Source: a virus
Taxonomy: Duplodnaviria; Caudoviricetes
IMG/VR virus record: IMGVR_UViG_3300030397_000595
Location: 1-46,088 of that record
DNA: 46,088 bases
Direction: 5' to 3' (one strand)
The number at the start of each line of letters is the position of its first letter. Within the stretch, counting starts at the first letter, position 1. Positions 1,168 to 46,017 of this stretch are shown here, piece by piece. Under the pieces are notes generated by a model. The model was not told the DNA's origin. It made no database searches and worked only from the letters and a program-made list of their open reading frames with translations. The position numbers were made by a program, and so were the translations under genes.

Positions 1168-1216
1168 TGGGCGATACAAGACTTGAACTTGTGACCTCTA
1201 CGATGTCAACGTAGCG
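1168..1216 (-). other. 3' portion of tRNA-Val(GAC), probable att core
   Basis: The - strand reads CTACG-TTGACAT-CGTAG (anticodon arm, GAC), AGGTC, ACAAG-TTCAAGT-CTTGT (T arm), ATCGCCC-A. The D arm and 5' acceptor strand are missing. It lies about 20 bp past the integrase stop. Confidence 0.85.
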
Positions 1217-1234
1217 GTCATAACGCCATAATTG

Positions 1235-3491: not shown

Positions 3492-3890
3492 ATGTCCGTT
3501 CCTATGATTGATCAATTACGTGTTCAACGACAGGCTTTGTTGGAGGAGTTAATACCACTGTTAGGTCTTCGCTCACAGGGAGGTCAAGTGACACCGCCCG
3601 GTACAGTTGTACGAATATACGAGATTCAAGAAGCTATGAGAGAGTTGGACATGAAACTCCGCTTTGTGTCAGTGGCGTCACCTGTGGTGGTTTGTGTGGG
3701 TTGCCCTCAATGTACGCTCGGCTTCAAGCTAGTTTCTAATACCGATAATGTTTTGCTGAGCGAGGACGGTATCAGGTTGGTTTATGACGTTCGTTGTGCT
3801 TGGTGCAACAGGCATTTGTTGGCCGGGTTGGCATTGGAAATTGTAGAAGATTGTCGGGATATGCGTGTTTCTACAGAAAAACTTCAGTAG
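3492..3890 (+). CDS. Hypothetical protein with C-terminal CxxC pairs
   Basis: Coiled N-terminus, CPQC..CAWC; starts 3 bp after the initiator gene. Confidence 0.6.
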   Translation: MSVPMIDQLRVQRQALLEELIPLLGLRSQGGQVTPPGTVVRIYEIQEAMRELDMKLRFVSVASPVVVCVGCPQCTLGFKLVSNTDNVLLSEDGIRLVYDVRCAWCNRHLLAGLALEIVEDCRDMRVSTEKLQ

Positions 3891-4104
3891 GAGGTATTTG
3901 CTTATGGTTACTTGTGGGGGCCTTAGTAGTTTGCTGTTCGTTTCAGTTGAACATTCAGCTGAAGAATGTAGCAGAGGCCAATCTTGATTTGATTGGCCTC
4001 TAGGGAAGTGATGAGTTCAGTCTTTGTGGCAAAAGGCTGAACACTGTGGCAGGGAGGATTATAACATAAATCCCCCTGCCCTATAGGTATATAGGTAAAG
4101 AGTT

Positions 4105-4881
4105 ATGTCTACAGTTCTTAGTGTTATTAATAGTCCCGGCCGGGTAATTGCGGCTGTGCTGGCATTTGGTGTTTTCGTTTTTATAACGGGATTGAATGCT
4201 GTTTTTACATTTACATATGGTATGGATGTTGTTGGGGCTTTTTTGCTGACTTCGGCGTTGAGTGAATCAGCTAGCATGATAGTTTCCGGCGTGGTGTCTT
4301 TATTCTTTTTTGATGTTGCCTACCTAGTTGGCTTTATCGTCATCTTGATGGCGTGTGACTCGGTTTGGCAATATGGCATTGTGATGTTGCAAGTAACTAA
4401 CTGCTTAATATTGAGCATTGTGGCTAGCGTTGTGAGCATCATCATTTTGTCCCCATTAGGTGATGTTTTGCCTTCGCTAGCAATTGAGGTTGCACGTTAT
4501 TTGGGTTATGCGGGTTTGATTTGGGGGTTCATTGTTAATGTGTTTTCAGGCATGGGTTATATTGCGACTTCGCCGAAAGTGTTTGCCGCCATTCGTAAGT
4601 CAATGTTTGAGGCTACTCGTGCGGCGAATGAGATCGCACTTGATTGGAAGATTGAATATGAGACTAACCGATTAACTTTTCAACAAGTTTCATTGGAAAC
4701 TCCAACTATGGCACGTTCTCTTTCTGCTGATGCTGTAGCACAATGGAAAGCACGTCACGGTCAGACTTATCAATTAGCTGAATCGACAGGGCCAACCGCC
4801 CCTATCCCTTCCTCCTCAACTTCTTCATCAACAGTTAGCAATGGTATTACAGCTAGTTCGCCAGCATTGGGAAACGCCTAA
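4105..4881 (+). CDS. Four-TM membrane protein with Ser/Thr-rich tail
   Basis: Four long hydrophobic segments, then a soluble helix. Ends at a G GGA AAC slippery site. Confidence 0.75.
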   Translation: MSTVLSVINSPGRVIAAVLAFGVFVFITGLNAVFTFTYGMDVVGAFLLTSALSESASMIVSGVVSLFFFDVAYLVGFIVILMACDSVWQYGIVMLQVTNCLILSIVASVVSIIILSPLGDVLPSLAIEVARYLGYAGLIWGFIVNVFSGMGYIATSPKVFAAIRKSMFEATRAANEIALDWKIEYETNRLTFQQVSLETPTMARSLSADAVAQWKARHGQTYQLAESTGPTAPIPSSSTSSSTVSNGITASSPALGNA

Positions 4882-29559: not shown

Positions 29560-29605
29560 ATGTAATTGAGTCTCCTTGAGATTTTGAGCGTCCCTTGTTC
29601 GCTAC

Positions 29606-29664
29606 AAAAAAAAACACGCCTTAAAGATGAGCTAACCTTGTTCGCTCATCCTCAAGCCGTGTTT
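29606..29664 (-). terminator. Intrinsic terminator in the head-gene leader
   Basis: The - strand reads CACG.CTTGAGGATGAGC...GCTCATCTTTAAG.CGTG followed by 9 U. The G-U pairs form on the - strand. Confidence 0.7.
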
Positions 29665-29866
29665 CTTCGTTCCGGGCGGTAGTGTTTGGTTGGTAAAATC
29701 GCCCTGCGGGGCAGTAGGGGTTGCCTTGCGTTTCCCTACTGCCCTTGCTGACGGGGTGCTGGGCCGTGTAACCCGTCAGCTTTCAACTTATCTTGGGGGC
29801 GATTCGCTCCGGATCAAATCGCCCCATTCTATGGGTTGTATGTTAAAGGCTACCCACTACCCTATC

Positions 29867-29896
29867 ATATTAGCACATGTGTTTTAGTGTGGTCAA
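29867..29896 (-). promoter_or_regulatory. Putative promoter for head genes
   Basis: TTGACC-18 bp-TAATAT with TGn before the -10. Confidence 0.5.
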
Positions 29897-29897
29897 A

Positions 29898-30083
29898 TCA
29901 ACCGCCCTCTTTTTGATGTTCATGTAGCTTCATAACTTTCCATGTAATGCGATCTTGGTGCCGGGTCACAACGAACACGTACTGCCCCGGTTGCAACCCC
30001 ATTACTCTACGCTTGAGTTGTTCACCGTTGTGTCTAACTGTCGTTCTCGGTTTCGCCGTTGGCTTCGCTCGTAGTGTTGCCAT
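29898..30083 (-). CDS. Small basic hypothetical protein
   Basis: Overlaps the portal gene end; LQPGQYVFVV...TWKV. Confidence 0.45.
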   Translation of the reverse strand: MATLRAKPTAKPRTTVRHNGEQLKRRVMGLQPGQYVFVVTRHQDRITWKVMKLHEHQKEGG

Positions 30084-31705: not shown

Positions 31706-33184
31706 TCATCCTAGTGGGGTTTGATATTGTGATTTACTTGTAACTCGCCGTCGCCCCTTACCTACTTGTCGTTTACGGGTGCTAGGCCAACGCATTCCCG
31801 CTAATCCCACAACATAGCTCATTGCTCTATCGTCTGTCATTCCTTCCGGTGCATGTAACGTCGCTGATTCAATGTTGCCAAGTTCGTCTAATGTTGGCCT
31901 ATCTCGGATGATGGGGTCACCATGCTTAAATGCTGTAGCTCCCATATCAAAGGCCATAGTCTTTTTCTGTGGTGAATTGAGCCAACCGTCTTTATTGTCG
32001 AACGGGTTTCGGTAAACGATGAAGTTGTAGAGTGAACGTAGCTGATAGAGTGCTTGATGCACTGCATGTCCATGATTGTTTCGTTCCACACATATAACTG
32101 CACCATTGAAGAAATGTGCTATTTGTGCCAAGTAGCCAGCAAACACACCCGGCTCGAACAAACCATGAAGGGTAGCTACTTCGCCCCAATCGTTTATGTC
32201 GAACACGGTTACACTACAAGGGGTTGACCCTTCATTACCCTCGCTGGTATCGGCCGCAATGAGATATTTGTGTGTGCGTCGCCTCGCCTCGTAAAGCGTC
32301 AGGCCATTTATGGCTGGTAATTGTGCATCCACTACGGGCTTTGACTCACGGAAACAGGAGGTAAGCCAGTCAGGGTCAAATCGTTTGTTACTCCCCCTAC
32401 CCGCTAATGCTTGCTCTGGCGTTTCGGGATACTCTTGCCATAAGTCATCTTTGGTGTAATCCCGCTTTTGTTTGTTGTACCATGCCTTCGTCCTACCCGG
32501 CCGGGCTGACCACGGAAGAAACACCGGCTTGTAGTCGTTGTCGTTTTTAATCGCGTCTCGCCATATTCTCTTGAACTCGCTCATTGGCTTGTCTTTGTTG
32601 GAAGTAGAAATAAGAATCAACTGACCACCCGCGTCAACCGTAGGCTTAACACCACGTAAGAGCGCGGCTAAGTCGGGCGTGAAATCGGCCTCGTCCACAA
32701 TAGCTAGTGTGGCTGTCTCTGACCGGCCGGAGCCGGGTGTCGTTGGAAACGCTTCAGCTTTGCTCCCTATGCTAAGTTCAAACTCGTGGTCGTTATCTGT
32801 TACAACCGTGCTTTGTAAGAATGGGGGTAAGCGTTCGTGCATTTGTGAGATGCGTTCTAATAACTTGATAGCCTCTTTGTCGCGCTTCGAGAACAAGAGA
32901 ATGATTGAACCCGGCCAGAAAAGAAGCATCCATAGCGCATAACCCACTGCCACCCACGTCAACCCCAACTGCCTAGCCTTTAGTACAATAACGAGGTCGT
33001 TAGCTGTAAAAACATCTAACACCTCGAATTGTGCATCCCACAACTTAAATGGCAACCAATCCAAAACCCCCGGCCGGGGGTCTTGGATTGAGCAGTACGT
33101 ATCAATAAAGTAAGCAGACGAAAGAGCGCACTTAGCGTGTTCCACTTTCATCTGCTGTTCATTCATCATTGTTGTGGTCGTCAT
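31706..33184 (-). CDS. terL: Terminase large subunit
   Basis: Walker A KARQLGLT, Walker B LAIVDEA, ISTS, QEYP, AADTSEG, VERNNHG, DDRAMS. Start uncertain (33184, or slightly downstream). Confidence 0.92.
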   Translation of the reverse strand: MTTTTMMNEQQMKVEHAKCALSSAYFIDTYCSIQDPRPGVLDWLPFKLWDAQFEVLDVFTANDLVIVLKARQLGLTWVAVGYALWMLLFWPGSIILLFSKRDKEAIKLLERISQMHERLPPFLQSTVVTDNDHEFELSIGSKAEAFPTTPGSGRSETATLAIVDEADFTPDLAALLRGVKPTVDAGGQLILISTSNKDKPMSEFKRIWRDAIKNDNDYKPVFLPWSARPGRTKAWYNKQKRDYTKDDLWQEYPETPEQALAGRGSNKRFDPDWLTSCFRESKPVVDAQLPAINGLTLYEARRRTHKYLIAADTSEGNEGSTPCSVTVFDINDWGEVATLHGLFEPGVFAGYLAQIAHFFNGAVICVERNNHGHAVHQALYQLRSLYNFIVYRNPFDNKDGWLNSPQKKTMAFDMGATAFKHGDPIIRDRPTLDELGNIESATLHAPEGMTDDRAMSYVVGLAGMRWPSTRKRQVGKGRRRVTSKSQYQTPLG

Positions 33185-33800
33185 CTCCGGCCGGGAGTTG
33201 TCGGCGCCGCGCCCTCCACTCCTCAAGCTCATCGGCGGCAACTTCAAAATCATCATGAGTAACCACAACAGCATTTGGTGTTTTAGACGCTGTTGTGGTC
33301 GCGGCTCGGTCTAAAATTTCCCTCGCCGCTCGTAGTGCAACATGGTCGTTGGGGCTGTTCATCATCAATTCCACTAGACGATGCGCCGCTTCCTCCGCGC
33401 TGTATTGCAAAATTGTTACTGCCTCAGCTACACGACTGGTTGTCTGTTTGTTGCGCCATGTCCTAGCTAGCTCATATGCGTCATTCAACACCTGAACAAA
33501 TGCAGGATCATCTTGTCGCCACTTCTGGTAAGTCGAGCGGGCGCACGTTGCTTCCATTGCCCAAAATTCCTTTGTATCAAATCCCTGCCCCACTATTCTC
33601 CGCGATACAATAAGCAATGCAGTGTCCTGCTTTTTCGGCGTGTCTAATTTGTTTATCTCGCTGGCGATTGCCTCAGCCAACGTTCGCTTTGGCGGTGGTG
33701 ATGAGTCCAGCGTCGGGTCTAAGCCCCCCTCCTCTACCTTTGGTTCTACCAACTTTGGTTGCACGACTGGCTGTTTAACTACTTCCATGATGGTCTGCAT
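33159..33800 (-). CDS. terS: Terminase small subunit
   Basis: CARSTYQKWRQDDPAF HTH-like, VALRAAREILDR; overlaps terL. Confidence 0.7.
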   Translation of the reverse strand: MQTIMEVVKQPVVQPKLVEPKVEEGGLDPTLDSSPPPKRTLAEAIASEINKLDTPKKQDTALLIVSRRIVGQGFDTKEFWAMEATCARSTYQKWRQDDPAFVQVLNDAYELARTWRNKQTTSRVAEAVTILQYSAEEAAHRLVELMMNSPNDHVALRAAREILDRAATTTASKTPNAVVVTHDDFEVAADELEEWRARRRQLPAGDDDHNNDE

Positions 33801-33871
33801 ATGTACCGTTTTTATTCCGCTTAGTGAAAAAACAAATCACTAACAACGTATAAGTCACTATACGAACTTCC

Positions 33872-34108
33872 TTAGATGACTAAGGGTTCGTACTTATCCA
33901 TATCTTCTAGCTTATACCAAAAACTTCCGCATAGTAGCAGACCTAGTTCCCTACCCGTTAGTTGATTATCCCACCCCATTTGCCTCATGTCATAGGGCGT
34001 TAGCCCTAGTCGTCGCCTGACCTCCGCTTTTGATTTAGCTTTGGCTATCACTCTCGCGTATTGCTTTCCCATTCGGTAAGTATTTGTAGCGTAACCTGTC
34101 AAATTCAT
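33872..34108 (-). CDS. Small basic hypothetical protein
   Basis: ORF with an AGGA RBS. Confidence 0.5.
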   Translation of the reverse strand: MNLTGYATNTYRMGKQYARVIAKAKSKAEVRRRLGLTPYDMRQMGWDNQLTGRELGLLLCGSFWYKLEDMDKYEPLVI

Positions 34109-34127
34109 AGAACACCTGTCCTGTTCA

Positions 34128-34694
34128 TTGTATCATAAGGCCATGTCAAAAATCTATCACCGCTCCAACCGCATGGATTGGGGGACACCCCAATGGGTAA
34201 TCAACTGGCTCAGCCAAGACTATAACCTTCTCCTCGATGTGTGCGCGTGGCCGCATAATCGGAAAGCTCCCTATCATCTATCACCCAATGACGATGGGCT
34301 TTGCGTAAGCTGGCGTGGCTGGCTCGATGGTTGGGGTGCAGATTTAGCACAACACGCTTGTTGGATGAACCCGCCATATGGACGACAAATTGGCCGCTGG
34401 ACGGCCAAAGCCCGCCGCGAAGCGGCGGCTGGTGTTCGCACTGTTGCCCTCCTACCCTCCCGGCCGGACACACGTTGGTGGCGTGACTCCATCCTACAAC
34501 CAATAGAAACCCGCGATGATGACACACTTCGCTGGCGATTGCGTTATCCAGTACGCAATCTCATTGGCCGGGTTTGGTTCGAGGGCGCCGACAATGGAGC
34601 AACGTTCCCCTCGTGCGTGGTTGTGTTCGACAATCGCACCATTGGGGGCGAGACATGGTATTCAACAAAACAACTAAAAGCCATGTACAGCTAG
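34128..34694 (+). CDS. Phage DNA N6-adenine methyltransferase (T1 Dam-like)
   Basis: WGTPQW, LDVCA, WMNPPYG, LLPSRPDTRWW, FPSCVVVF. Start probably ATG 34143. Confidence 0.88.
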   Translation: MYHKAMSKIYHRSNRMDWGTPQWVINWLSQDYNLLLDVCAWPHNRKAPYHLSPNDDGLCVSWRGWLDGWGADLAQHACWMNPPYGRQIGRWTAKARREAAAGVRTVALLPSRPDTRWWRDSILQPIETRDDDTLRWRLRYPVRNLIGRVWFEGADNGATFPSCVVVFDNRTIGGETWYSTKQLKAMYS

Positions 34695-34742
34695 CTGTAC
34701 ATGGCTTCCAACGACTAAAAAAGGGTAGCTCCCCACCCCACC

Positions 34743-35222
34743 CTATTCGTTCATATGAGCAAGCTCTTTGTTGCGTAACCACAACGCCGCACGGTAGATT
34801 ACGTGTGCGTGGCAGTGCTGGTCACTGCGGTCACAGTGGCATAAGAACACTGTGTATTCGTCAATGTGCCGTAGATTTCCTAGCACTGCTTGATTCTCTC
34901 TTTTAATTTGTTCCCAAAGCCATCTACGGTAGCTTTGGGCTTCTTCATCTTTCGATTCCACATGAATCGCATTAGACTTATTGTTTACACTGTATGGGTT
35001 AGCCAATGGGGACTTGCTGAATGCCCAACCCTCTTTCCTCTTGACACCACGCCCCACATAGTTGAGGTGTGCGTGTGGGAAGTTGTGGCGGATTCGACGA
35101 ATGTCGAATTTGTATTTAGCCACGTTCACTATACGTGCTTTAGACGCTAGTGACGTTACAGATACTTGATAAGTCTTTGTCTTTTTTCCATTCTGAACTG
35201 TTCTAACTACTGTGTTTGTCAT
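34743..35222 (-). CDS. DUF4326-family protein
   Basis: YVGRG, SPLANPY, YRRWL, LCHC...CHAHVI; ATG 35222 with GGAGG RBS. Confidence 0.8.
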   Translation of the reverse strand: MTNTVVRTVQNGKKTKTYQVSVTSLASKARIVNVAKYKFDIRRIRHNFPHAHLNYVGRGVKRKEGWAFSKSPLANPYSVNNKSNAIHVESKDEEAQSYRRWLWEQIKRENQAVLGNLRHIDEYTVFLCHCDRSDQHCHAHVIYRAALWLRNKELAHMNE

Positions 35223-35294
35223 TGTGAACCTCCATAGTTCTAAAAATGATTGAATGATGTTGGTGGCTTCCGCCTCCATTCACGACGAAGGGGG

Positions 35295-35810
35295 CCATGA
35301 GGGGGTTCCCTGCTGTCAAGGGGACTGTCTACGGCGAAATGAATTGCGGACGGTCACAGTCAAGAACATATCCTTGACAGTAGGGTACTCATGGTACACT
35401 GGCTTAACTGAGGAGGAGGAAGAAAGCCGCCCTTGTTTGTGCATTTTTCCAATCCCGATAGGGTTGGGAAAATGCACAAACAACTGCCTAGCGTCCCGAT
35501 AGCGAGCGTGGCAGCCCATCTCGGCGCCTTGTCGTTCCATAGAACGACGGTGGGCGATAGCCCACTCCGAACGGTGTTTGCTAACCTAGTTGGTATTGCT
35601 CATCGAAACTGTCAGGTTTGACAGCTCCCACCGGTAAGCACGGTCAGGGCTGACCGTGCGAGCTGTGGCTTAGTTGCCCTGCCCCGCCGCCTAATCAGGG
35701 AAGGGAGCCGAGGCAAGGGGCAGGATTGGACGCGCTTAGGCTCCAAAGCCGTTGCAGTAGCGAACTATTACATCTACAGTGGCATGAAGCCAACGGCTTT
35801 AGGGCGCGGC
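35295..35810 (+). promoter_or_regulatory. Large multi-hairpin element (candidate ssDNA promoter/sso, or ncRNA)
   Basis: At least 8 inverted repeats in an intergenic GC-rich stretch. One long hairpin carries TTGACA in its stem. Confidence 0.6.
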
Positions 35811-35815
35811 CAGAA

Positions 35816-36187
35816 TTAAAACGGACGACGGTACTGGCCCGGCCGTGAGTCGATTTTGCCTAATGGGGGATTAGGATCAGGCTCATCAATGCGTGAAACA
35901 AAAACAGCATTATGCTCGGCATCAGCGGAGACCAGCAAACCGAACAGGTTGGGCGTTAGTGCATAACTATTGAAACGCAACTCGACGCAATCAAAGCGTC
36001 TAGCAAGCCTTAGAATCTGCGTGACAATTTCATGCGGGTAATGTTTTGATCCGCCACCAATACGAAAACGTAAAGCATACATTTCTTTGTTTTGATTATA
36101 TGACAGGGAGGCTATGTCATAAGGGCTTGCACTACGATCAAGAGAGGGCATAGTTTTCACTATAGCAGACTTCCCCCTTGTTACCAA
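35816..36187 (-). CDS. Hypothetical protein
   Basis: ORF between a terminator and the structured element; start uncertain. Confidence 0.45.
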   Translation of the reverse strand: MVTRGKSAIVKTMPSLDRSASPYDIASLSYNQNKEMYALRFRIGGGSKHYPHEIVTQILRLARRFDCVELRFNSYALTPNLFGLLVSADAEHNAVFVSRIDEPDPNPPLGKIDSRPGQYRRPF

Positions 36188-36192
36188 TTAAG

Positions 36193-36220
36193 AAAAAAAG
36201 AGGCTAAATAGCCTCTTTTT
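36193..36220. terminator. Bidirectional intrinsic terminator
   Basis: A-run-GAGGCTA-aa-TAGCCTC-T-run. Confidence 0.7.
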
Positions 36221-36225
36221 ATTGA

Positions 36226-36807
36226 TTACGATGTGAGTTCACGCCGAATGTAGCAGAACGCAGGGGCTGTAATACAAACAAATTGGCGCAATACTTTGTA
36301 GAAGTAAATAAATCTTTGAGTCGGATAATCCTCAAATAAGAGATGATGATGGTACTGCTCAAAGTCTGCGATTGCTTCGCTTAGTTCCTCATAGGTAAAA
36401 GGTGCTTGTTTGTGGACATACTTGTCAGGGACTCCTATCGAAATCATGTCTTGTGAAATTAGATGTTGAGCGAGTTTTATTGGAAATTTCAGATGTAAGG
36501 CTAGCTGAAAAATAAGGAGTTCTAAATCACTATTGTCAATCTTATTAGTTGGTGGGTGTTGCGCTAATGTGTCTTTATATGCGTAATGGATGTTTATACA
36601 TAGTTCACCATATGAACTCCAAAATTTCGCTGAGCGTTTGATTTGTGCGTCACGTTGCCGATAGCCTCTTTGCTGTGCTGTTGCACATTCGGCTATTTGG
36701 GCTATTAGATGATTGGCTGTTATTTCTCCGATTTGGTATCTAGCATAAAACTCAAAGATGTTTTTAAGAGTGATTCGATTGGTTTCGCTTACGTCTGTGG
36801 GTTGCAT
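36226..36807 (-). CDS. Hypothetical helical protein
   Basis: AAGGA RBS; member of the small-gene array. Confidence 0.6.
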   Translation of the reverse strand: MQPTDVSETNRITLKNIFEFYARYQIGEITANHLIAQIAECATAQQRGYRQRDAQIKRSAKFWSSYGELCINIHYAYKDTLAQHPPTNKIDNSDLELLIFQLALHLKFPIKLAQHLISQDMISIGVPDKYVHKQAPFTYEELSEAIADFEQYHHHLLFEDYPTQRFIYFYKVLRQFVCITAPAFCYIRRELTS

Positions 36808-36870
36808 AATGTTTTCCTTATAAGTTACCCGGCCGGGCGGTCAGTTATGATCCTCCGGCCGGGTCGTTAG

Positions 36871-37197
36871 CTATTCGCTTGTGTATTCGAGCCGCCCATG
36901 TATGACTTTTGAAAGAATGGGCGGGGTACTGGTCGGGTTGGCAATCGTATGGCTATGCACTTCATCTACATCTTCCCAGATAGCCGGAATAGGGCTACCT
37001 TGTTGAAGCAAATATTTGGGCTTTACTGCTTCGGCATGTAACAAAGTGGCATACTGGTTACTAAAGTCTTTGAACGGTCTTTGCAAAGTAAGGATGACAA
37101 GAGCCGGGTTCTTTCTTAGTGTGTAAAGATAGTAAACGTTGGGGATAGAGTGCATTAGGAGCAAGTCATCTAGTGTCAAATCAATGTGAGTAATCAT
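36871..37197 (-). CDS. Hypothetical protein, paralog family B
   Basis: LVILTLQRPFKDFSNQYA aligns with the 38633 ORF. Confidence 0.6.
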   Translation of the reverse strand: MITHIDLTLDDLLLMHSIPNVYYLYTLRKNPALVILTLQRPFKDFSNQYATLLHAEAVKPKYLLQQGSPIPAIWEDVDEVHSHTIANPTSTPPILSKVIHGRLEYTSE

Positions 37198-37541
37198 TTT
37201 GTTTTATCCTTCTTCGAGATAATGTTTAATAGCTCAGTCATGTTTTGAATAGGAGTAGTACGATCCTCTATGATAATAAGGTTTACCAAAAGACCTTTTC
37301 TCCAAGAATCATGCACGTCGCTATTCTCGGTTATTATGTGCCTTGAATCAGCATCACTTTTATGGAAGCTACACGTATGGCCGACATAGTAACTCAGCGG
37401 CTGACCTCGTGTCACGATGCCTACAGTATTGTCACGTTTAAGGCAGTAGAACCATTGATGCTTGAACAATTGATGGGGTTGTCTTTTCACTAAAGTGACT
37501 TCCTCAAGAATATTAACTTCGACTTTTATAGTGGGGGACAT
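37194..37541 (-). CDS. Hypothetical protein, paralog family B
   Basis: GIVTRGQPLSYYVGHTCSFH aligns with the 38633 ORF. Confidence 0.6.
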   Translation of the reverse strand: MSPTIKVEVNILEEVTLVKRQPHQLFKHQWFYCLKRDNTVGIVTRGQPLSYYVGHTCSFHKSDADSRHIITENSDVHDSWRKGLLVNLIIIEDRTTPIQNMTELLNIISKKDKTK

Positions 37542-37632
37542 TATTTTTCCTTTGTTGGTTTGTTAGGAGGCGGTCATTTCTGACCGTACTGAAGGGAAGT
37601 AAGCGGCTCTTTAATGATTGGCTTAAAAAGCG

Positions 37633-38097
37633 TCAGCTTTCTCGCTCTACGGGTAGATAATCTGGAAGGTAAACAGGTTCAAGAGGGCTATCCAAAAGGC
37701 TTTGTAGATGAACATACGTAACTAGAGGTCGGTATTCAATCAAGTAATCTATAAACGTACTGAAGAATTCTTCGTGTGCGGCGTGGTAATCTTCATCATC
37801 ATTGAAGTTGGTAGAGTAGTAAAAGGCAGTTACGTAAAGACCTGTTGTGATGTAGGCGATCTGTTCAGGTGTTAAAGTGCTAACGGCTTTAGGGTTGCTT
37901 TGGAATTGAGCGTTATCAAGATCGTCTGTTAGTGCCATGATGTTGTTGGGTGCGAGTCCTAAAGCCGTGCCTGTTTTGATGACTAGCCTGTTTATGTAAA
38001 TCATGTCGTGAGTCTGATCACGCAAACAACAACCAGCTTTGCGTACTGCTTCAAATAGGTTAATGAGTAAATCGTGTTTTGTGTTGTCGTTGGACAT
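37633..38097 (-). CDS. Hypothetical helical protein
   Basis: AGGAG RBS; acidic. Confidence 0.6.
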   Translation of the reverse strand: MSNDNTKHDLLINLFEAVRKAGCCLRDQTHDMIYINRLVIKTGTALGLAPNNIMALTDDLDNAQFQSNPKAVSTLTPEQIAYITTGLYVTAFYYSTNFNDDEDYHAAHEEFFSTFIDYLIEYRPLVTYVHLQSLLDSPLEPVYLPDYLPVERES

Positions 38098-38109
38098 GGG
38101 ATTCTCCTT

Positions 38110-38544
38110 CTATTCTACTCTTACTGAGTGAATGGGAATTCGTTTCAAACTGGCTTGTATTTCCTTTAGGGGATTGAGTAAATCGTCAAGTTGGCCCGGT
38201 GCTTGAACAGCAAGCGCCTCAATGACGCCAAAGATGAAACCTTCTTTAGCCTCATCTTCGCTCGTGCGGCCGGGGCCAGTTGACTGGAAGAAGGAAGTGT
38301 ATAAGGTTTGTTCGAGGTTGGAAATAATGCGAATGTGGTGTTCGCCTTTGAACTCTGCAAACCCCCCTGCCCTTGAGATTGTGCTTGTGAAAGGTTCAGG
38401 TATCCCTACCTGCCACGCAAAATTAGCTATCATGGCTTGTATAAAATTGGCCTTGTCAGGATACCTTTCAAGTAGGTTGTCACGTGTTTGTGTGATAGCC
38501 CGTATCATGGTGTTTGGATTGGAAAGTTCATTTTGGGGTGTCAT
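38110..38544 (-). CDS. Hypothetical helical protein
   Basis: AAGGA RBS. Confidence 0.6.
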   Translation of the reverse strand: MTPQNELSNPNTMIRAITQTRDNLLERYPDKANFIQAMIANFAWQVGIPEPFTSTISRAGGFAEFKGEHHIRIISNLEQTLYTSFFQSTGPGRTSEDEAKEGFIFGVIEALAVQAPGQLDDLLNPLKEIQASLKRIPIHSVRVE

Positions 38545-39111: not shown

Positions 39112-42100
39112 TTAGAAAGAAAAAGCTAACTGTTTGTCACTAACAGGCTTTTTATTTCTGCGTCTTTTCGTCCTTAACAGGTTTGTTGCCTTGCCAAATA
39201 TCAAGGGTTCAAAGGGTTGTACGGCGGGTGGTGGGTCAAAGAGCGGTAAATCGGCGACCGAAGAAGGCTCCCGGCGATTGACGTTTTCACTATCGTCCTC
39301 AAGCTCCATATGAAAACCTATATGCTCACTAGACTTTGTGGTTTGGTTGTTGAGTTCTCGCTTAAAAATACCAGCAATATCAACAACATCTTTAGACCCT
39401 GTCTGGATGCGCTTTAGAAGCTCTCTCTGCACAGAGTCCCCGGCCAGATCCGCGATGTCGGTAGTGGCTATAGCATCTCCCGATACACGCTTTGCGGCGG
39501 CGGCTTTCTTAGCTATTAAGCCAAGAGCCATTGCTTGCATACTTTGCTCATAGTAAAAGAAATACACTTTTACAGCCTTCTTTTGACCGATGCGATATCC
39601 ACGTCGTGAGGCTTGCATGACTGTGTAAACGCTGTACTCCGTTCCCATCCACATGATTGTTGGGTAGTGGTAGATATCTAAACCAGTCTCGACACTACGA
39701 GGATGGGCAATGATGACATTGATACCTTTCTTTGACTGTTGGTTAATCCACGCCTCTCTTTCACTTGCGGGGCATTTCAGTACAGCCGGTCGCAATCCGG
39801 CGTCAGTTAGAATCTTGTGCCAATGCCCGGTTATGTCGCGTGTGTTGGTTTGCTGACATAGCAGAAGGACGTTGCGATTGCGTCCAATTTCTTGCTTGGC
39901 TAACCCAATGATCTCAGCCTCTTTGGGCCATAATCTGTTTACCTTTAGACCGGGTATTTTGACTAGCAACTTGGGTTCCAAATCATGCTTTGTGTGTGGA
40001 TCAATTACAGTCTCATCACGCCATGGGGCATCTGGCATTGAGATCATGCCCCATAGGTACGCACCAAGCAGGCTTTTATCGCCTCGTTGCAACCGTGAAC
40101 GCATTATCCTGCCTAACTTGTCCTCAAACGCCTTTAGCTGAATTTGCTGTAGGGGATGTAGCTGTACAGGTCGTGGTATTTCTTCATAATCAGGCAGTGC
40201 AAAACCAAGATTGTTAAGATTTAAGAAGGCACACCTATCTAACAAGTATGGGATCATGTGAGGACTCATGCCGGGAGCTTCTCGGACATTACGTCTACTT
40301 TTGAGTTCACCAGATTGCTTCCCATATTTGTCATGATGTGTTGTAATCACTTCCTGCAACAGCCCATATTTGTCAACCCACTTCTTCACGTCAATACGTG
40401 CGCTACCACTAACATTGGTCTTAGTAAACGCCTTGCGAATCTCTGGTGACATGCGATACAGCATGTGGAAGATACTGCTGGCCTTCCCACCATAGATGGT
40501 TCCGGTTAGTCCTAGTACCTTTCGTGATGAATAGACGAGGCGGGCAAACGCCCTGCCCTGATCGCTATCTGCACCTTTTAACTTCTGGACTTCATCAGCA
40601 ATCAGCAGGTCTATTTCGTTTGGGAACTGTTTGTGAATGTAAGTGGCTAGAGGAAACTTAGCCCGGCCGAGTGGCGATGATGGGCGATTGTGTTTTGCAT
40701 GGAGCGTCATAGTTCGGTAAGAACCAAACGCCCGCTCTTTTTCTGCGCGGCATTGTTGCCATGCGGCAACATAACGACCTCGTTCATGGCTACCCTTGTG
40801 TTGAACAGGTTTCAGGCGTAACGCATACTTATGATTAGGTCGGTGTATTCCTCGCGTTAGGGTTCGTCCATCCTTGTCACGGATGAATTGGCCGGACGGG
40901 TACTGCAAATAGCCAGCCGTTTTAGGCTTACGTTTTTTCTCATTAAACGCATGTACCCACCCGCTCCCTGCTCGTGCAGAAGTGAACTTCATTATCCCAA
41001 AGGTGATACCATCATCTGCTAACCAACTGTTTACATCAGTCATGGTCTTCAAATGGTAGATGGTGGCTTCTGGCACAACCATCTTCGCCTGTCTTGCCCA
41101 CTTGTTTACAAGATGGGGTTCGCAGAATATCAACGTTCGTTTCGCTTCGATGGCTCTGCTGACAGCGATAGCTGTGCGAGTTTTCCCTACGCCCATTTCA
41201 CCTATCATCAGTGCATCTCTATGCGTCTCCAGACGGGTTGCCAATGCACACGCTACGTGCTTTTGGGCTACAAACAGATTCCCACGCTTTCCAATGCGCT
41301 TGCCATGTTCGCCCATGTCGAACGTGTATCTCGGCTTGTACTTTTCCTGAATTAGTTGAACTAGATTATTCATCCACTTATCGAGGAAATTCGAGAGGTC
41401 TTCCCCTTCGATGACTTTGTACTCACCTGTGCTTGTTAAAGTTACTATCTTCGTTCTAACGCGCTGTGTCCTTGTCTGGATGCGTTTCTCGTTTTCATAT
41501 TGATCTTTCTCTACGGCGATTTCGTCATGCCATTGTTTGGCTGTTAGCCCTTTGATGAGTAGCTCGTCTGAACCATCCTCAAGCAATTGATTGTTTAACC
41601 CACCTCCTGCAATCAACTCTGCTGTGTGTCCGATTTTCAGCGGCATGAGTATCGGTGTGGTCTCTGTGCAATCTGGCTTCAGGTGCAGGTCTAGCGAACC
41701 ATTAGCCTCAATCCCTAATTGTTCCAATTCGATGTAGGCATCATCGGGGCCTACAAAATTAGGCATGAATGTAATTTTGTTTTTCATCAATAAGGGGGGC
41801 AACTCCCAATAAGCATTGTGCTTAACAGGCGATACGTCTAGTGGTAGTCGTTCCATTACCCGATCTGGATCAACCAGTCTAGCCATTGTCTGAGATATTT
41901 TGTTAATCCCCAATGGCTTTTTACGCTTGTGTCCAATAAAAACGAGTTGGCGAAAACGTTCATATTCACCATAAGGGAATCGGAACAACTCAAAATCTTC
42001 ATACCATGCTTCTAAATAGGTGGCGAGTCGGGGCGATTGCAAAGCCGTGATTGGCACTACTAGCACTAATACGCCACGTGGTTGAAGCCACTTGGTAGAC

Positions 42101-42504
42101 AGCTTTACGAATGTATGTTCCAGCCGTCCGTCTTCATGGTCGGTATCATAGGGAGGGTTTGCATAAACAAGATTGAACCCGCTTGGGCTGGCTGTTACAA
42201 AACGAGCATTGTCGTGTGTGACTTTCAGCGGATTGATGTCTCGTGATACATTGTGCTGGTTTAGATAATTGTTTAACTCATCTAACTTGGTGCGTGTTTT
42301 GCTGGCGCGTAGCGCATCCAGTTCATTGGCATAGCATTCAATCTGGAGTGCTTTACCAATACCATAGATTTGATCTCCGTTGCCAGAACATGGGTCAAAG
42401 GCGCGTCCCCCATGTGGTGCTTTCAGGCGAATAGTTATGAGCGGTAGAATGTGGTCAGGCAGGGGGTAAAAACCTGCCTTTGCAGTGCTTTCTAAACGTG
42501 CCAT
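39112..42504 (-). CDS. N6-adenine methyltransferase (DUF6094-like)-SNF2 helicase fusion
   Basis: MARLES..KAGFYP, FDPCSGNG, ANPPY; Walker A GEMGVGKT, IADEVQ, LTGT, ETGLD, QASRRGYRIGQ. Confidence 0.88.
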   Translation of the reverse strand: MARLESTAKAGFYPLPDHILPLITIRLKAPHGGRAFDPCSGNGDQIYGIGKALQIECYANELDALRASKTRTKLDELNNYLNQHNVSRDINPLKVTHDNARFVTASPSGFNLVYANPPYDTDHEDGRLEHTFVKLSTKWLQPRGVLVLVVPITALQSPRLATYLEAWYEDFELFRFPYGEYERFRQLVFIGHKRKKPLGINKISQTMARLVDPDRVMERLPLDVSPVKHNAYWELPPLLMKNKITFMPNFVGPDDAYIELEQLGIEANGSLDLHLKPDCTETTPILMPLKIGHTAELIAGGGLNNQLLEDGSDELLIKGLTAKQWHDEIAVEKDQYENEKRIQTRTQRVRTKIVTLTSTGEYKVIEGEDLSNFLDKWMNNLVQLIQEKYKPRYTFDMGEHGKRIGKRGNLFVAQKHVACALATRLETHRDALMIGEMGVGKTRTAIAVSRAIEAKRTLIFCEPHLVNKWARQAKMVVPEATIYHLKTMTDVNSWLADDGITFGIMKFTSARAGSGWVHAFNEKKRKPKTAGYLQYPSGQFIRDKDGRTLTRGIHRPNHKYALRLKPVQHKGSHERGRYVAAWQQCRAEKERAFGSYRTMTLHAKHNRPSSPLGRAKFPLATYIHKQFPNEIDLLIADEVQKLKGADSDQGRAFARLVYSSRKVLGLTGTIYGGKASSIFHMLYRMSPEIRKAFTKTNVSGSARIDVKKWVDKYGLLQEVITTHHDKYGKQSGELKSRRNVREAPGMSPHMIPYLLDRCAFLNLNNLGFALPDYEEIPRPVQLHPLQQIQLKAFEDKLGRIMRSRLQRGDKSLLGAYLWGMISMPDAPWRDETVIDPHTKHDLEPKLLVKIPGLKVNRLWPKEAEIIGLAKQEIGRNRNVLLLCQQTNTRDITGHWHKILTDAGLRPAVLKCPASEREAWINQQSKKGINVIIAHPRSVETGLDIYHYPTIMWMGTEYSVYTVMQASRRGYRIGQKKAVKVYFFYYEQSMQAMALGLIAKKAAAAKRVSGDAIATTDIADLAGDSVQRELLKRIQTGSKDVVDIAGIFKRELNNQTTKSSEHIGFHMELEDDSENVNRREPSSVADLPLFDPPPAVQPFEPLIFGKATNLLRTKRRRNKKPVSDKQLAFSF

Positions 42505-42536
42505 TTTATACCTCCATAGGTGTGCTGTTTTAGGCT

Positions 42537-42701
42537 TTATGATGATTGGAATAGTTGTTGGATTTGTACGTAGTCAGGTGATTGGCTCAACCCAAGCATA
42601 TCGGCAATGAGCAAGAATGTGTGTATATCAGCTTTCGTAGCTAGGTCATACTGAATCGCTTGCGCTAGCTCATTGATGGCAATTGATAATTCTTTTGTCA
42701 T
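42537..42701 (-). CDS. Small hypothetical protein (54 aa), not in the ORF track
   Basis: MTKELSIAINELAQAIQYDL...; fills the gap between neighbours, with an AAGG RBS. Confidence 0.5.
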   Translation of the reverse strand: MTKELSIAINELAQAIQYDLATKADIHTFLLIADMLGLSQSPDYVQIQQLFQSS

Positions 42702-42705
42702 GTGA

Positions 42706-43275
42706 TTAACCTTTTATTGCTATATCGTTATTGGCTAATCCTTCAGTGATTAAAGTTAGCCAATTGTCGGAATTGAGTTGGATACTAGCCATTGTGGTGT
42801 TGAAGCACTCCCGATCACTAATGTCAATTAACCCCGCATTCTTACCTGTTTGCCAGAGATATTCTGCCCATGTAGGGCGCATAGGTATGGCAACAGCGCG
42901 GTTTAGTAATTCATAAAAATTAAGGGGGGCTGTACCGCCTCGCACAACATCGAACAGATACATCCAGTCATTGAAAGGGCTTATAGCTTGTAAGCTGGCT
43001 TGCTTGTGAAGCATGACCCAGTTGTAATATCCACACGGAAGACGTGAGGACTTAATGACAATATGTTCGTCGCGTTTAATATAAACGTGTGAATGGTTAA
43101 TGTTCTTTCCATGGGCGGTTCTTCTTTTTAACTGAGCAAGACTGGCACGTAGACTGTCAAATGTGCCAAACATGTTTAGGTACACCAACACACTGTCTTC
43201 GGCTTCGATGGCTAGTTTCTTTATGTAGACAGGTATTTGTTCAGTGATGTATGTTTTCACGAAGGGTGTAATCAT
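42706..43275 (-). CDS. Conserved hypothetical protein typically adjacent to methylase-helicase genes
   Basis: AIPMRPTWAEYLWQTG..AGLI...WLTLITEGL pattern, recalled from ICE-like regions. Confidence 0.6.
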   Translation of the reverse strand: MITPFVKTYITEQIPVYIKKLAIEAEDSVLVYLNMFGTFDSLRASLAQLKRRTAHGKNINHSHVYIKRDEHIVIKSSRLPCGYYNWVMLHKQASLQAISPFNDWMYLFDVVRGGTAPLNFYELLNRAVAIPMRPTWAEYLWQTGKNAGLIDISDRECFNTTMASIQLNSDNWLTLITEGLANNDIAIKG

Positions 43276-43292
43276 GATCTATCCTCTTAAAA

Positions 43293-43325
43293 GCAAAACG
43301 GACTAGCTGAGCTAGTCCGTTTTGC
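43293..43325. terminator. Perfect inverted repeat / terminator
   Basis: GCAAAACGGACTAGCT-G-AGCTAGTCCGTTTTGC. Confidence 0.65.
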
Positions 43326-43350
43326 AACTATAGATTTCGTATTGAGTTGG

Positions 43351-44148
43351 TTAGTGTGGCTCGGCACCATTAGTGACAGGTTGGGCAGGTTTGGCGAACC
43401 AAATATCTAGATCAATTTTCTGCTCCATAGACAAACCACCGAACCATCGTTCTAGGGCGGCTTTGTCGGCTGGCGTTGCATTCAGCACGTCTCGCATAGC
43501 ATCAAATATCTGTCTAACGCGAGAATCCTGACTGACCGTCTCACCATCGTCATAGATATAAGGGTGATCTTCGGGGGGTGTATCTGTCCCGGCCGGGTCG
43601 TCATCGAACAAAACCGACTGAGGTTGTGGGCTTTCGTTCGGAGCTTCTTCTTCATCCAGTTTCTGCAACATCACGTTCGCAACAGCTAATGCTTGCAGAT
43701 ATTCCAAGACAGCATAAGCCATAGCTTTCGCTTGCTCTTGAGTGAACATTACCTTGATAACATGAAGTGCCTGACCCTTTGGCTTCACGGCGCCAGTCTT
43801 CGTTGGCGTTCCCTCACCCCGTCTGAACTCGAAATAATAGTTGAGCCGTCCGTCCTGCTGGTTGCGACTCGAATTAACCAACATAACACGGCTTTCAAAC
43901 TTACCGCCGTCTACGGCATTACCCTTGTAATCAGCAAACTTTAGATCATCTCCGTTTATGATGTCGTGCAAGAGAACTCGCGCTTTAGGGGAATCAACAA
44001 AATGCGAAAGCGTTAAAGATGCTCCTTGCCCCGATTTGAACTTTCCAGCAAAGAAGTGGAGTTTACCAATACCACTAGCGTCCTCAACATGGGCCCAAGC
44101 ACTCTTGGTCATGTGTTCAAAAATGCGAATATATTTTGGTTTACTCAT
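43351..44148 (-). CDS. Hypothetical protein (beta-rich N-terminus, acidic linker)
   Basis: GEGTPTKTGAVKP motif; start at 44148 or 44166. Confidence 0.6.
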   Translation of the reverse strand: MSKPKYIRIFEHMTKSAWAHVEDASGIGKLHFFAGKFKSGQGASLTLSHFVDSPKARVLLHDIINGDDLKFADYKGNAVDGGKFESRVMLVNSSRNQQDGRLNYYFEFRRGEGTPTKTGAVKPKGQALHVIKVMFTQEQAKAMAYAVLEYLQALAVANVMLQKLDEEEAPNESPQPQSVLFDDDPAGTDTPPEDHPYIYDDGETVSQDSRVRQIFDAMRDVLNATPADKAALERWFGGLSMEQKIDLDIWFAKPAQPVTNGAEPH

Positions 44149-44150
44149 GA

Positions 44151-44849
44151 TTATCTGTTCCTCCATGGACCTAACGTGTCTGCTCGTAGACTTCGATAGT
44201 TTCCATGACCAATTACTAAATGATCTAACAAAGTGATTTGTAACAACTGACCCGCCTCGTGTACTTGATTTGTAACAGCTATATCGTGAGAGCTTGGGCT
44301 AGGGTCGCCGCTGGGGTGATTGTGAGCCATCACAATTGACACGGCATTACTATGCACGGCTAGTCTCATTATCTCTGCAATACGGATGACACTGGTGTTT
44401 ACATTTCCAATATAGAGACGGTGTTCCTTTATGATCTGGTTGCGCTGGTTCAAGCACAAGATGATTAAATGTTCTTGTTCTAGGCTGACCATTTCAGGCA
44501 TAAGATAATCGGCAAACTCGCTGGGACACGAGAACTTTTGCGCTCGGTTTTGCGTCGCATACTTAACGAGTCTTCGGCCTAGTTCAAGACTAGCTTTTAT
44601 CCGCTTGGCGGTTGCGACGCCAATGCCCTCAATTGATACCAGTTGTGTAATTGAGGCATTATACATTTCCCGCAACGTAGGAAATGCTTTGGTTAATTCA
44701 TCCGCAATTTGCGGAGATCCGTTTAAGATAGTGGTTATTAAATCGAGCGTTTGGGCATACGGCAATTGCTCATCATACGTGATTGTGGCTTCGTTTAATT
44801 GCATTGATACTTCTGCCAAATCTGGGAAATTAAGCTGTAGCTGAGACAT
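44151..44849 (-). CDS. radC: RadC family protein (HhH + JAB/MPN)
   Basis: IEGIGVATAKRIKASLELGRR, EQEH, AHNHPSGDPSPSSHD, LLDHLVIG. Confidence 0.92.
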   Translation of the reverse strand: MSQLQLNFPDLAEVSMQLNEATITYDEQLPYAQTLDLITTILNGSPQIADELTKAFPTLREMYNASITQLVSIEGIGVATAKRIKASLELGRRLVKYATQNRAQKFSCPSEFADYLMPEMVSLEQEHLIILCLNQRNQIIKEHRLYIGNVNTSVIRIAEIMRLAVHSNAVSIVMAHNHPSGDPSPSSHDIAVTNQVHEAGQLLQITLLDHLVIGHGNYRSLRADTLGPWRNR

Positions 44850-45348
44850 GTTGATCCTCCACGAAACGATTGAAATAGATGGCTAGGTTGTAGGCGATAA
44901 TGTGCTTGCAAATCTTCACGTACCCGTGCTGAAGGTGAACCATCGGAGCTTTGCCAAACTTGTGGTAATCATCACATTGGCAAGATGGTTTCCTTGCGTC
45001 TCCCTGCAAGCTATAGAGCTTGTCCGGGTCTTTTTGGGACTGCACTTGAGCCACTTCATTGAAGAAACGCGCCATACGTGGCCGGGGTTGGTATACACCA
45101 TTGCTCAAGTAAATCTGTGCCGCCTTCAAAGCTCTGGACTTTGTCTCTGGATAGCGCTCAATGAACTGCTCGATCTGTGTGCCTAGTGCGCTGTTTTGCT
45201 GAATGATGGCAGTTAGCCATGCCCGATCCTTCTCGGCCGGGCCGGGGCCGAAATGGGCAGTAATCCGTTCGCTTTTATCTAGCACACGCCATCCGCGATC
45301 TGACCCACTACCCTTGTAAAATAGCGTTGAGGTTCCTATAATTGTCAT
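44830..45348 (-). CDS. SWIM zinc-finger protein
   Basis: CQCDD...CKHIIA; ATG 45348 with GGAGG RBS. Confidence 0.8.
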   Translation of the reverse strand: MTIIGTSTLFYKGSGSDRGWRVLDKSERITAHFGPGPAEKDRAWLTAIIQQNSALGTQIEQFIERYPETKSRALKAAQIYLSNGVYQPRPRMARFFNEVAQVQSQKDPDKLYSLQGDARKPSCQCDDYHKFGKAPMVHLQHGYVKICKHIIAYNLAIYFNRFVEDQHVSATA

Positions 45349-45610
45349 GACTAAATCCTCCATAGGTTTGGTTGAATGATGTTCTGCAAACAGCCTCCTC
45401 GCACGGGGCTGTTTGTGTGTTTTGGCAATAATCACATACGTCGTCCAACAGACTTTGATCTTTGGCATAGGTGATGAATAGCGGCCCCCATTCGGCCGCA
45501 CAGCGACGACACAGCGTAAACGGCCCGACCCCTAGCTCAGACGATAGAATACGAATGAAAGGCGTTCCATCCGGCCGGACACCATACACATTATCAAATA
45601 CAGCGAACAT
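45308..45610 (-). CDS. Small CxxC hypothetical protein
   Basis: ATG 45610 with GGAGG RBS; CRRC and CDYC. Confidence 0.5.
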   Translation of the reverse strand: MFAVFDNVYGVRPDGTPFIRILSSELGVGPFTLCRRCAAEWGPLFITYAKDQSLLDDVCDYCQNTQTAPCEEAVCRTSFNQTYGGFSHDNYRNLNAILQG

Positions 45611-45669
45611 AAAGACCTCCATAGATTTTTTGATTGATTTGTGATTGCTCCCCCCCCACCCCACTAGAG

Positions 45670-46017
45670 TTAGACTGGAATTTCATCAGCGTCAGTTGAT
45701 GCACCCATCGCACTCCCTGCATAGCGGAATGTGCTTGCATTCAGCTTTAACGAGGCACGTGCTTTACCTGTGTTGTTATCAACCCATGCGTTTACTGACA
45801 CTTCCCCTACACAAAAGACAGACTTACCCGTTGTTAGATTCTTGGCGAGACTTTCAGCCAAGCCATTCCACACAGTCACCTCGAACCATGTGGGGTTATC
45901 ATTGCTAGTTTTGTTTACCGCAACACTGAAGTTAAGAACAGCTTTACCTGATGGGGTGTAGCGAAGCTCGTTAATGCGGCCGACGTTTCCAAAGATAGTT
46001 GTTAATTGGTATGACAT
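45670..46017 (-). CDS. ssb: Single-stranded DNA-binding protein
   Basis: IFGNVGR..ELRYTPSGKAV.NFSVAVN, WFEVTVW..LAE; short acidic tail DEIPV. Confidence 0.93.
   Translation of the reverse strand: MSYQLTTIFGNVGRINELRYTPSGKAVLNFSVAVNKTSNDNPTWFEVTVWNGLAESLAKNLTTGKSVFCVGEVSVNAWVDNNTGKARASLKLNASTFRYAGSAMGASTDADEIPV

Follow-up and report, generated by a model that had tools for sequence, protein, structure and literature searches.

Single-strand origins, such as the sso of rolling-circle elements and the minus-strand origin of M13, are folded single-stranded DNA with -35 and -10 boxes that are read by host RNA polymerase, and they accompany a rolling-circle Rep. Among conjugative plasmids, pESBL is reported to have six single-strand promoters, and the hairpins ahead of ardA and klcA, whose starts were mapped by 5' RACE in pESBL and which are conserved in F, are assigned to class 2 (Wen et al., PMC12672017). 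The class 2 copy of F has been named Frpo3 (10.1101/2025.04.03.647016), and this F element is described as a roadblock that stalls second-strand synthesis, which the ssp1/Frpo transcripts prime in vivo (10.64898/2026.01.09.698686). Class 1 includes Frpo1 and Frpo2, for which background is given in PMC9849209 and PMC11541004, and ssi1-3 of F and ColIb-P9. The EGeRS1 regions of pLS20 are described as multi-repeat regions of 400–600 bp that lie before establishment genes and stop read-through (PMC8708921). As far as the literature surveyed goes, single-strand promoters have so far been proven experimentally in enterobacterial plasmids only, and no paper on such a promoter in a tailed phage was found in the open-access literature.

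Here we compare these systems with a multi-hairpin element at positions 35295–35810 of the IMG/VR record IMGVR_UViG_3300030397_000595, a linear stretch of 46,088 bases that is called the window below. An earlier note on this DNA had proposed that the element is a single-strand promoter or origin, and that the phage either has a single-stranded or cruciform phase or has captured a module of this kind, with a large non-coding RNA as the alternative. Judged from the sequence and its predicted folds, the first hairpin (hairpin 1, 35295–35394, + strand) is probably, at a likelihood of roughly 60%, a class 2-type single-strand promoter cassette that was captured from a conjugative element and serves the neighbouring DUF4326 gene.

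The contig and the genes around the element

The window, with a CheckV completeness of 36%, is a genome fragment of a tailed temperate phage. Protein-family searches, with 50 of its 192 ORFs scanned against Pfam, found an integrase, the small and large terminase, the major head protein, a tape measure protein and a holin, together with a weak portal match and two methyltransferase genes. A module that conjugative or mobilisable elements also carry occupies 39112–46017 on the minus strand and holds a DUF6094 methyltransferase-SNF2 helicase, a 189-aa ORF, RadC and SSB. In this incomplete contig no relaxase was found (PF13814, 0/1 in the contig; none among the 50 scanned ORFs), nor was a rolling-circle initiator present among the same 50 ORFs. 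The + strand is the template for almost all genes from 11.7 to 46 kb, so agreement in strand alone is cheap evidence. ARAGORN reported no tRNA or tmRNA in the window; directly past the integrase stop there is a tRNA-like piece without a D arm (1168–1228, minus strand; Rfam tRNA, 27.7 bits, E 0.097), a candidate attachment site.

The element is present in three DNA runs (X1, X2 and X3), all of one study. Single contigs cover 33000–38500 in X1 and 33000–37330 in X2, and the element is joined to the terminase gene on one contig in two of the three runs, both of which are possibly the source of the record. At 36693–36722 and 37301–37759, runs X3 and X2 show branch points and a spike in depth, which suggest variant neighbours that share short pieces of that arm. 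The first 15 letters of the window, which we take to be a random-amplification primer, match loose tails in run X3, so that the record ends and the depth would be library artefacts.

The gap that the element fills lies between an orphan ORF of 111 aa upstream (35816–36151, minus strand) and the DUF4326 gene (34743–35222, minus strand), the predicted target. DUF4326 is 159 aa long (PF14216, E 7e-10), and its ATG stands behind GGAGG at 35233–35229. Two terminator-like hairpins directly past the gene (34673–34739, minus strand) would make its message monocistronic; they are not strong evidence alone, with six such sites in 33500–38000 against 4.6 in shuffles. A lone Dam-type methyltransferase gene (34128–34694, + strand) lies tail to tail with DUF4326 across a perfect palindrome (34678–34707). 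DUF4326 has been proposed to process ADP-ribose phosphates (PMC9503650), and amoeba viruses have it in fusions with homologues of an anti-Avs protein (10.1101/2025.06.06.658234). These links would suit an early protective role, and the promoter reading of hairpin 1 would point to DUF4326 as a candidate early anti-defence protein. The search for relatives of DUF4326 returned 196 distant ones, without gene context.

The 111-aa ORF has no Pfam match. Its single-sequence structure model is poor (pLDDT 61) with no Foldseek match at E 0.001, and the VIA matches listed for this low-confidence model were RPB5-like (RPB5-jaw), nuclease-like and STAS-like, with Z ≤ 8.2 and no Y1 chain among the 50 matches listed. 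A promoter-like site in the duplex lies at 36187–36159, and no terminator was found between it and DUF4326; read-through is possible, and the site offers an ordinary expression route for DUF4326. A dead RAYT gene with a REP array (a REPtron) was considered and rejected, as neither the missing Pfam match of the 111-aa ORF nor the search for a Y1 HUH gene (PF01797, 0/1 at E up to 10) pointed to it. As a check for REP repeats in host genomes, one of the hairpins was searched for in GTDB by exact match, with no match.

Fold of the element and promoter-like geometry of hairpin 1

When both strands of the whole element were folded with DNA and with RNA parameters, as the earlier note had suggested, all four folds were structured beyond chance, with none of 100 shuffles as stable in each case. 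The z-scores (-6.0 and -6.9 for RNA and -8.2 and -7.4 for DNA, + and minus strand respectively) show by themselves no strand preference. Among 307 tiles of the window, with 12 shuffles per tile, 35401–35550 ranks first and 35251–35400 third, and the distal tiles of the element are weaker (z -2.9 and -2.0). Ranks two and four go to tiles 3901–4050 and 34801–34950. More hairpin-rich stretches of the phage are found at 50–290, 3890–4105, 29560–29900 and 34801–34950, the last inside DUF4326.

The stems that had been listed from the letters alone are all in place in the predicted fold, although the one at 35484–35514 is weak. Pair probabilities are given here as means in the + strand DNA fold, and all features named are on the + strand. 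Hairpin 1 has an outer helix (35294–35301/35388–35395, 0.89) and a main stem (35308–35322/35371–35385, 0.96). It is followed by a 23-bp hairpin at 35433–35483 with a cGATAg loop and two G-T pairs (35433–35452/35464–35483, 0.97), and then by the weak hairpin at 35484–35514 with a second cGATAg, which occurs in the minimum-energy fold although none of its helices exceeds p 0.5; a long-range pairing, roughly 35486–35496 with 35728–35741, is its competitor. Beyond these lie two adjoining short hairpins at 35531–35565 with the loops cCATAg and cGATAg (35531–35548, 0.99; 35550–35565, 0.95), two more short hairpins at 35609–35659 (35609–35624, 0.63; 35638–35659, 0.98) and two distal stems at 35678–35813 (35678–35724, 0.70; 35745–35800, 0.95). 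A second TTGACA at 35618, inside the hairpin at 35609–35624, has no -10 behind it. A conserved coding ORF across the region, which the earlier note had named as counter-evidence to its own proposal, was not seen: none of at least 50 aa spans the element. Of three overlapping ORFs (82, 74 and 62 aa), the first two were scanned and gave no Pfam or PHROG match.

The wobble pairs in the two longest stems are indeed G-T on the + strand, one in the 14-bp stem and two in the 23-bp stem, and A-C mismatches are absent from both. One G-T and one A-C make the distal stem strand-neutral. The loop class d(cGNNAg) is a recognised one in DNA. The motif cGATAg does occur three times on the + strand (35456, 35497 and 35555), a number that none of 3000 shuffles reached, but it closes a firm hairpin at only two of the three places. 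Each strand has 11 loops, of which two on the + strand and none on the minus strand are of the type cGNYAg, against 1.2% of shuffle loops, and a + strand bias of the same loops is also seen in five of seven comparison regions (two of ColIb-P9, one of F, and the loci L172 and L182 described below), the other two F regions having none. The minus strand has one gUUCGc loop, which is opposite to the + strand DNA leaning. Taken together, loops and wobbles lean to + strand DNA, and d(GNA) loops are described as very stable in DNA (PMC3201870).

Hairpin 1 is a candidate single-strand promoter built of a 7-bp outer helix, an asymmetric loop (35302–35307 opposite 2 nt), a stem of 14–15 bp with the -35 box, and an inner hairpin. 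The -35 box, TTGACA at 35374–35379 in the 3' (non-template) arm, is paired with 35314–35319 at a probability of 0.99–1.0. An extended -10 at 35392–35400, made of TG at 35392–35393 and TACACT at 35395–35400, lies 15 nt past the -35, and both A of TACACT are unpaired (pair probabilities 0.86/0.01/0.86/0.01/0.84/0.80). The spacer in the template arm (35295–35313) is 19 nt long, 4 nt longer than that of the opposite arm, which leaves a 4-nt bulge; we call this layout 15/19. The 7-bp helix adjoins the -10, whose second base, the -11 A, is open (p 0.01). Hairpin 1 is non-coding, its folding strand is the template of DUF4326, and the Shine-Dalgarno sequence and ATG follow 55 nt beyond the -10 position.

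The -35 and -10 boxes are rebuilt in the fold and face DUF4326 only when folded; in the duplex, the left-facing TTGACA has no -10 better than 2/6 behind it. The spacing between boxes and start that is usual for sigma-70 places the predicted transcription start at 35281–35283 (minus strand), read from the 5' flank of the folded + strand. There is no helix beyond the -10, unlike in F and L182. Only one such 15/19 site exists in the 46 kb of the window. The flanks of the TGTCAA...TTGACA motif differ, with no target duplication, and the contig holds no second copy, and on these two counts an IS30-type miniature element was rejected.

The distal part has a relative of its own, since a second contig of run X1 (record 2, 9,513 nt) matches 35711–35770 at 52 of 60 letters, with flanks that are still arm-like, and the distal part thus belongs to a family; that contig has no further match within 33000–38500. 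A resemblance of the distal stem to HEARO or IS605 ends was considered and set aside, Rfam giving no support for it. On the minus strand, just past a distal stem arm, 35727–35738 bears what we take to be a likeness to a MOBQ-type nick core; it is in the part common to the X1 contig and on the strand opposite the promoter. The suggested Rfam check (release 15) came out negative for the element, with four matches up to E 5 in the window and none at 35295–35810. An integron attC site was likewise rejected, with one RYYYAAC and no GTTRRRY in 35270–35830.

Controls, look-alikes and relaxase-bearing relatives

The leading regions of F (13 kb) and ColIb-P9 (20 kb) were fetched as controls. The antirestriction gene of F and two such genes of ColIb-P9 are preceded by hairpins that likewise read 15/19 and leave the A open. 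The boxes in these hairpins were assigned in this analysis, and 15/19 is not a published criterion; the word 'bulge' does not occur in the main text of PMC12672017, and 'spacer' occurs neither there nor in the Frpo3 preprint (10.1101/2025.04.03.647016). At least three of the 13 candidates in Supplementary Table 2 of PMC11541004 (Frpo' 4, Frpo* 1 and Frpo* 3), which are predictions, read 15/19 by eye. A paired -35, 15 nt in the non-template arm, 19 nt in the template arm and a 7-bp helix near the -10 are alike in the window, F ardB/klcA, ColIb-P9 ardA, L182 and L172, and the open second A has a pair probability of 0.01 in the window, F and ColIb-P9, 0.06 in L182 and 0.25 in L172.

The detector for this layout was loosened at its -35 rule after an initial version had missed all controls because that rule was too strict. 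It finds one site in F and two in ColIb-P9, all 15/19 and all on the strand that serves the leading genes as template, and no site on the opposite strands of the two plasmids. In the window it reports 35374 (+, 15/19) and 7777 (minus, 17/19). The null model, 40,000 structure-preserving shuffles of the + strand, was designed after the pattern was seen: any such geometry arose in 466 shuffles, 15/19 in 33 and a perfect -35 in four, and none combined a perfect -35 with 15/19. With the stem given, a -10 appears at 14–19 nt in 3.1% of cases, at exactly 15 nt in 0.5% and with TG in 0.2%.

Like the class 2 elements (ssp2/Frpo3 of F and the IncI1 ardA/klcA promoters), hairpin 1 is a non-coding template-strand hairpin ahead of a gene, with a paired -35, 15/19, a 7-bp helix and an open -11 A. 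It differs from them in having no sequence similarity, an inner part of about 50 nt against about 140, no helix beyond the -10 and a TG extension, and in its place on a tailed-phage contig without known oriT or relaxase. Class 1 resembles the element in that the template strand is folded over several hundred bases, with small hairpins forming a tail and with cGNYAg loops, but there is again no sequence similarity and the A/T-rich inner hairpin is missing in the window; the detector misses class 1, whose box layout therefore differs. Judged by sequence, the element is a member of neither class, both being defined by homology. Structured cGNYAg tails also occur in class 1 elements and in L172, so that a folded DNA tail is the simplest reading of the approximately 400 nt past hairpin 1. 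The EGeRS1 regions, with 400–600 bp of inverted repeats before genes, fit the element in size, but as described they have no promoter in the fold and their transferred strand is the non-template one (PMC8708921), whereas the window has boxes in the fold. Single-strand origins, to which the element was likened by description, differ in that no rolling-circle Rep was found here among the 50 scanned ORFs.

No sequence homologue of the whole element was recovered, and hence there is no covariation for the window's own hairpin. Comparison by blastn with phages gave two records over 29 nt, nothing usable, and with 72,556 plasmids no match at E up to 5, the ardA/klcA, Frpo1/2 and ssi1-3 hairpins being unlike it by sequence. 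Exact and degenerate patterns in viral contigs gave 0, 6 (chance), 0 and 7 loci, none of the last like the element, and patterns in metagenome contigs and in GTDB gave none. In 401 genomes of the class of an Anaerolineales MAG there were eight short matches, of which the one examined was inside a coding region; in 401 genomes of the phylum there were three, with the pattern in G001 only. Loci reached with DUF4326 as bait gave one chance locus, and those reached with the terminase gave none.

A pattern of stem arms, 15 nt and -10 returned 10 viral and 105 GTDB loci. In 45 of 120 pattern matches, the window included, at least 10 of the 15 spacer bases pair with the upstream arm; among these 45, three have the 15/19 layout and 22 a symmetric 15/15 one, and blastn found no resemblance to the element. 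Their contexts are mixed (30 loci viewed, 23 Pfam-scanned) and include IS30 and IS110 genes, integrases with toxin-antitoxin genes, a coupling protein, an SNF2 helicase and housekeeping genes. When the spacer length was left open in a scan of 9 of 64 metagenome parts, the commonest spacing was 17 nt for unpaired matches (55/105) and 15 nt for hairpin-type ones (9/21), these nine coming from few families and none being 15/19. Two hairpin families, mostly of Verrucomicrobiota and Acidobacteriota (L031, L037, L048, L057, L073, L094, L102 and others), have TTGACA-15-TACAAT/TAAAAT, symmetric arms and an open -10, and lie near integrases, toxin-antitoxin genes, a coupling protein or a helicase. A Caulobacterales hairpin (L096, L033 and L119) has three small inner stems and reads 15/18-19, and two of its copies, L096 and L033, adjoin pntB.

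One GTDB locus in the Anaerolineales MAG (L093, the same site as L182) is 15/19. Relatives of the window helicase occur in 20 of 251 genomes of that class, with a best score of 537 bits against a best of 344 in plasmids, which tentatively suggests a Chloroflexota host, the genome search with the protein having covered this one class. Over 326 kb around helicase genes the detector gave eight rows, two of them 15/19 (L182 and L172), and a second setting over 375 kb returned the window, L182, L172 and one 14/20 site. L172 was reached via its helicase and not via the pattern. The integrative elements L182/L183 and L172 carry a Replic_Relax relaxase, VirD4-type proteins (two in L182/L183, one in L172) and SSB. 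Both the helicase and the 189-aa ORF of the window recur in them, with the same strand as template. Their 15/19 hairpins (L182:17310–17420, with L183, and L172:3063–3172) are on the template strand of the helicase module, and between L182 and L172 there are four compensatory pairs and two one-sided changes, with 0 of 38 pairs broken. This family was found in 2 of 401 genomes, and a structured tail of about 550 nt is 70% alike between the two. The pair are candidate Chloroflexota single-strand promoters.

As in the window, the layout in these elements is 15/19 and comes with a structured tail, and the DUF6094-helicase module is present; their boxes are TTGACA or TTGCCA for the -35 and TATAAT or TACAAT for the -10. 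They differ from it in their Replic_Relax and coupling proteins, in having no match to the window head and tail proteins, and in a hairpin sequence that is unrelated beyond the boxes. Other helicase-bearing genomes had no 15/19 site in the stretches read, and among eight viral loci with the helicase none had one within the fetched flanks.

Proposed mechanism and competing readings

The idea of a single-strand promoter gains from the extended TG -10 at the stem base, the unpaired -11 A and a 15/19 layout as in F and ColIb-P9, features that the earlier note had not named, and that of a captured module from the helicase-module relatives in relaxase-bearing elements with the same hairpin layout. 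If hairpin 1 works in this way, host sigma-70 RNA polymerase would bind the stem, take the open -11 A and transcribe the 5' flank, starting near 35282, into a message for a single gene. The 4-nt bulge may make the folded spacer act like 17 bp, the 15-bp spacer of the duplex would weaken the same boxes, and DUF4326 would be on only while the + strand is unpaired. The hairpins that follow may form a DNA tail whose fold slows or primes synthesis of the second strand. The least certain step is how the + strand becomes single; the likeliest occasion is a transfer of the prophage or its circle by conjugation machinery, supplied in trans or encoded in the part of the genome that the contig lacks. Alternatively, the cassette may be a recent relic. 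Against this reading, layout and not sequence is what the element has in common with the controls, and exact 15/19 is rare among look-alikes (3/45 and 0/9). The TGTCAA...TTGACA arrangement is also the usual layout of back-to-back promoters and of an IS30-type end (L086), and rightward firing from the duplex could be enabled by the TG extension.

Even where no well-spaced -35 is present, TG-n-TACACT could be active, and a non-coding RNA of about 400 nt might then run rightward from the extended -10 of the duplex, starting near 35407 and antisense to the neighbours. This is quite unlikely. The + strand RNA fold is strong (z -6.0), G-U pairs number 12 of 134 against 7 of 138 on the other strand, a long-range helix is possible and the distal part has its relative on another contig of X1; but the promoter would sit in a 100-nt hairpin outside the RNA, whose class 2 geometry is then left unexplained, and Rfam gives nothing for the element up to E 5, GNRA and UNCG loops are absent from the + strand and the 3' end lacks a terminator-like site.

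About as improbable is a single-strand origin, at which RNA polymerase would make a primer on the displaced + strand during rolling-circle replication, expression of DUF4326 being incidental, though size and many hairpins do resemble such origins. One look-alike (L089) adjoins a rolling-circle Rep gene by a weak Pfam match, and the same geometry can serve priming, as ssp1/Frpo transcripts are described as priming the second strand (10.64898/2026.01.09.698686). However, that source presents class 2 of F as a roadblock and assigns priming to ssp1, no rolling-circle initiator is among the 50 scanned ORFs, and a Shine-Dalgarno sequence, an ATG 55 nt on and terminators past one gene fit a message.

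It is very unlikely that the element is a minus-strand spacer or leader, transcribed from the 36187–36159 promoter, that blocks or tunes read-through into DUF4326. The minus-strand RNA fold (z -6.9) and the one gUUCGc loop agree with such a role, for which EGeRS1 is a precedent (PMC8708921), but the G-T pairs of the long stems become A-C mismatches on the minus strand, no terminator-like site lies inside, and EGeRS1 folds without the promoter boxes that the element has. Least probable of all is a chance pile of unrelated hairpins, in which decayed back-to-back promoters or an IS30-type miniature element meet short palindromes: TTGACA promoters often stand back to back (27 matches in one genome), the motif also arises from IS30 ends (L086), the phage has other hairpin-rich gaps and the window was chosen out of a very large scan, but a -10 at 15 nt, given the stem, has a frequency of 0.5% and of 0.2% with TG, and neither a target duplication nor a second copy in the contig is seen.

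A wider form of the promoter reading, which we hold only tentatively and regard as rather unlikely, is that a tailed temperate phage has a working single-strand promoter as its genome also travels as single-stranded DNA, in a phage-ICE hybrid or a mobilisable Chloroflexota prophage, and fires an anti-defence DUF4326 on entry; 15/19 would then be a convergent rule from E. coli plasmids to Chloroflexota, on when folded and off in the duplex. If the promoter reading is true, tailed phages either have an unrecognised single-stranded entry route or take up whole leading-region cassettes, the switch included. Why single-strand promoters are silent in duplex DNA may have a simple and testable explanation in the shared 15/19 spacer. 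As a search handle the layout is independent of sequence, and it has already yielded a pair in Chloroflexota elements. A 15/22 hairpin with a weak -10 was also observed on a viral contig (L020:2501–2593), where the folding strand is the template of a gene that starts 81 nt off.
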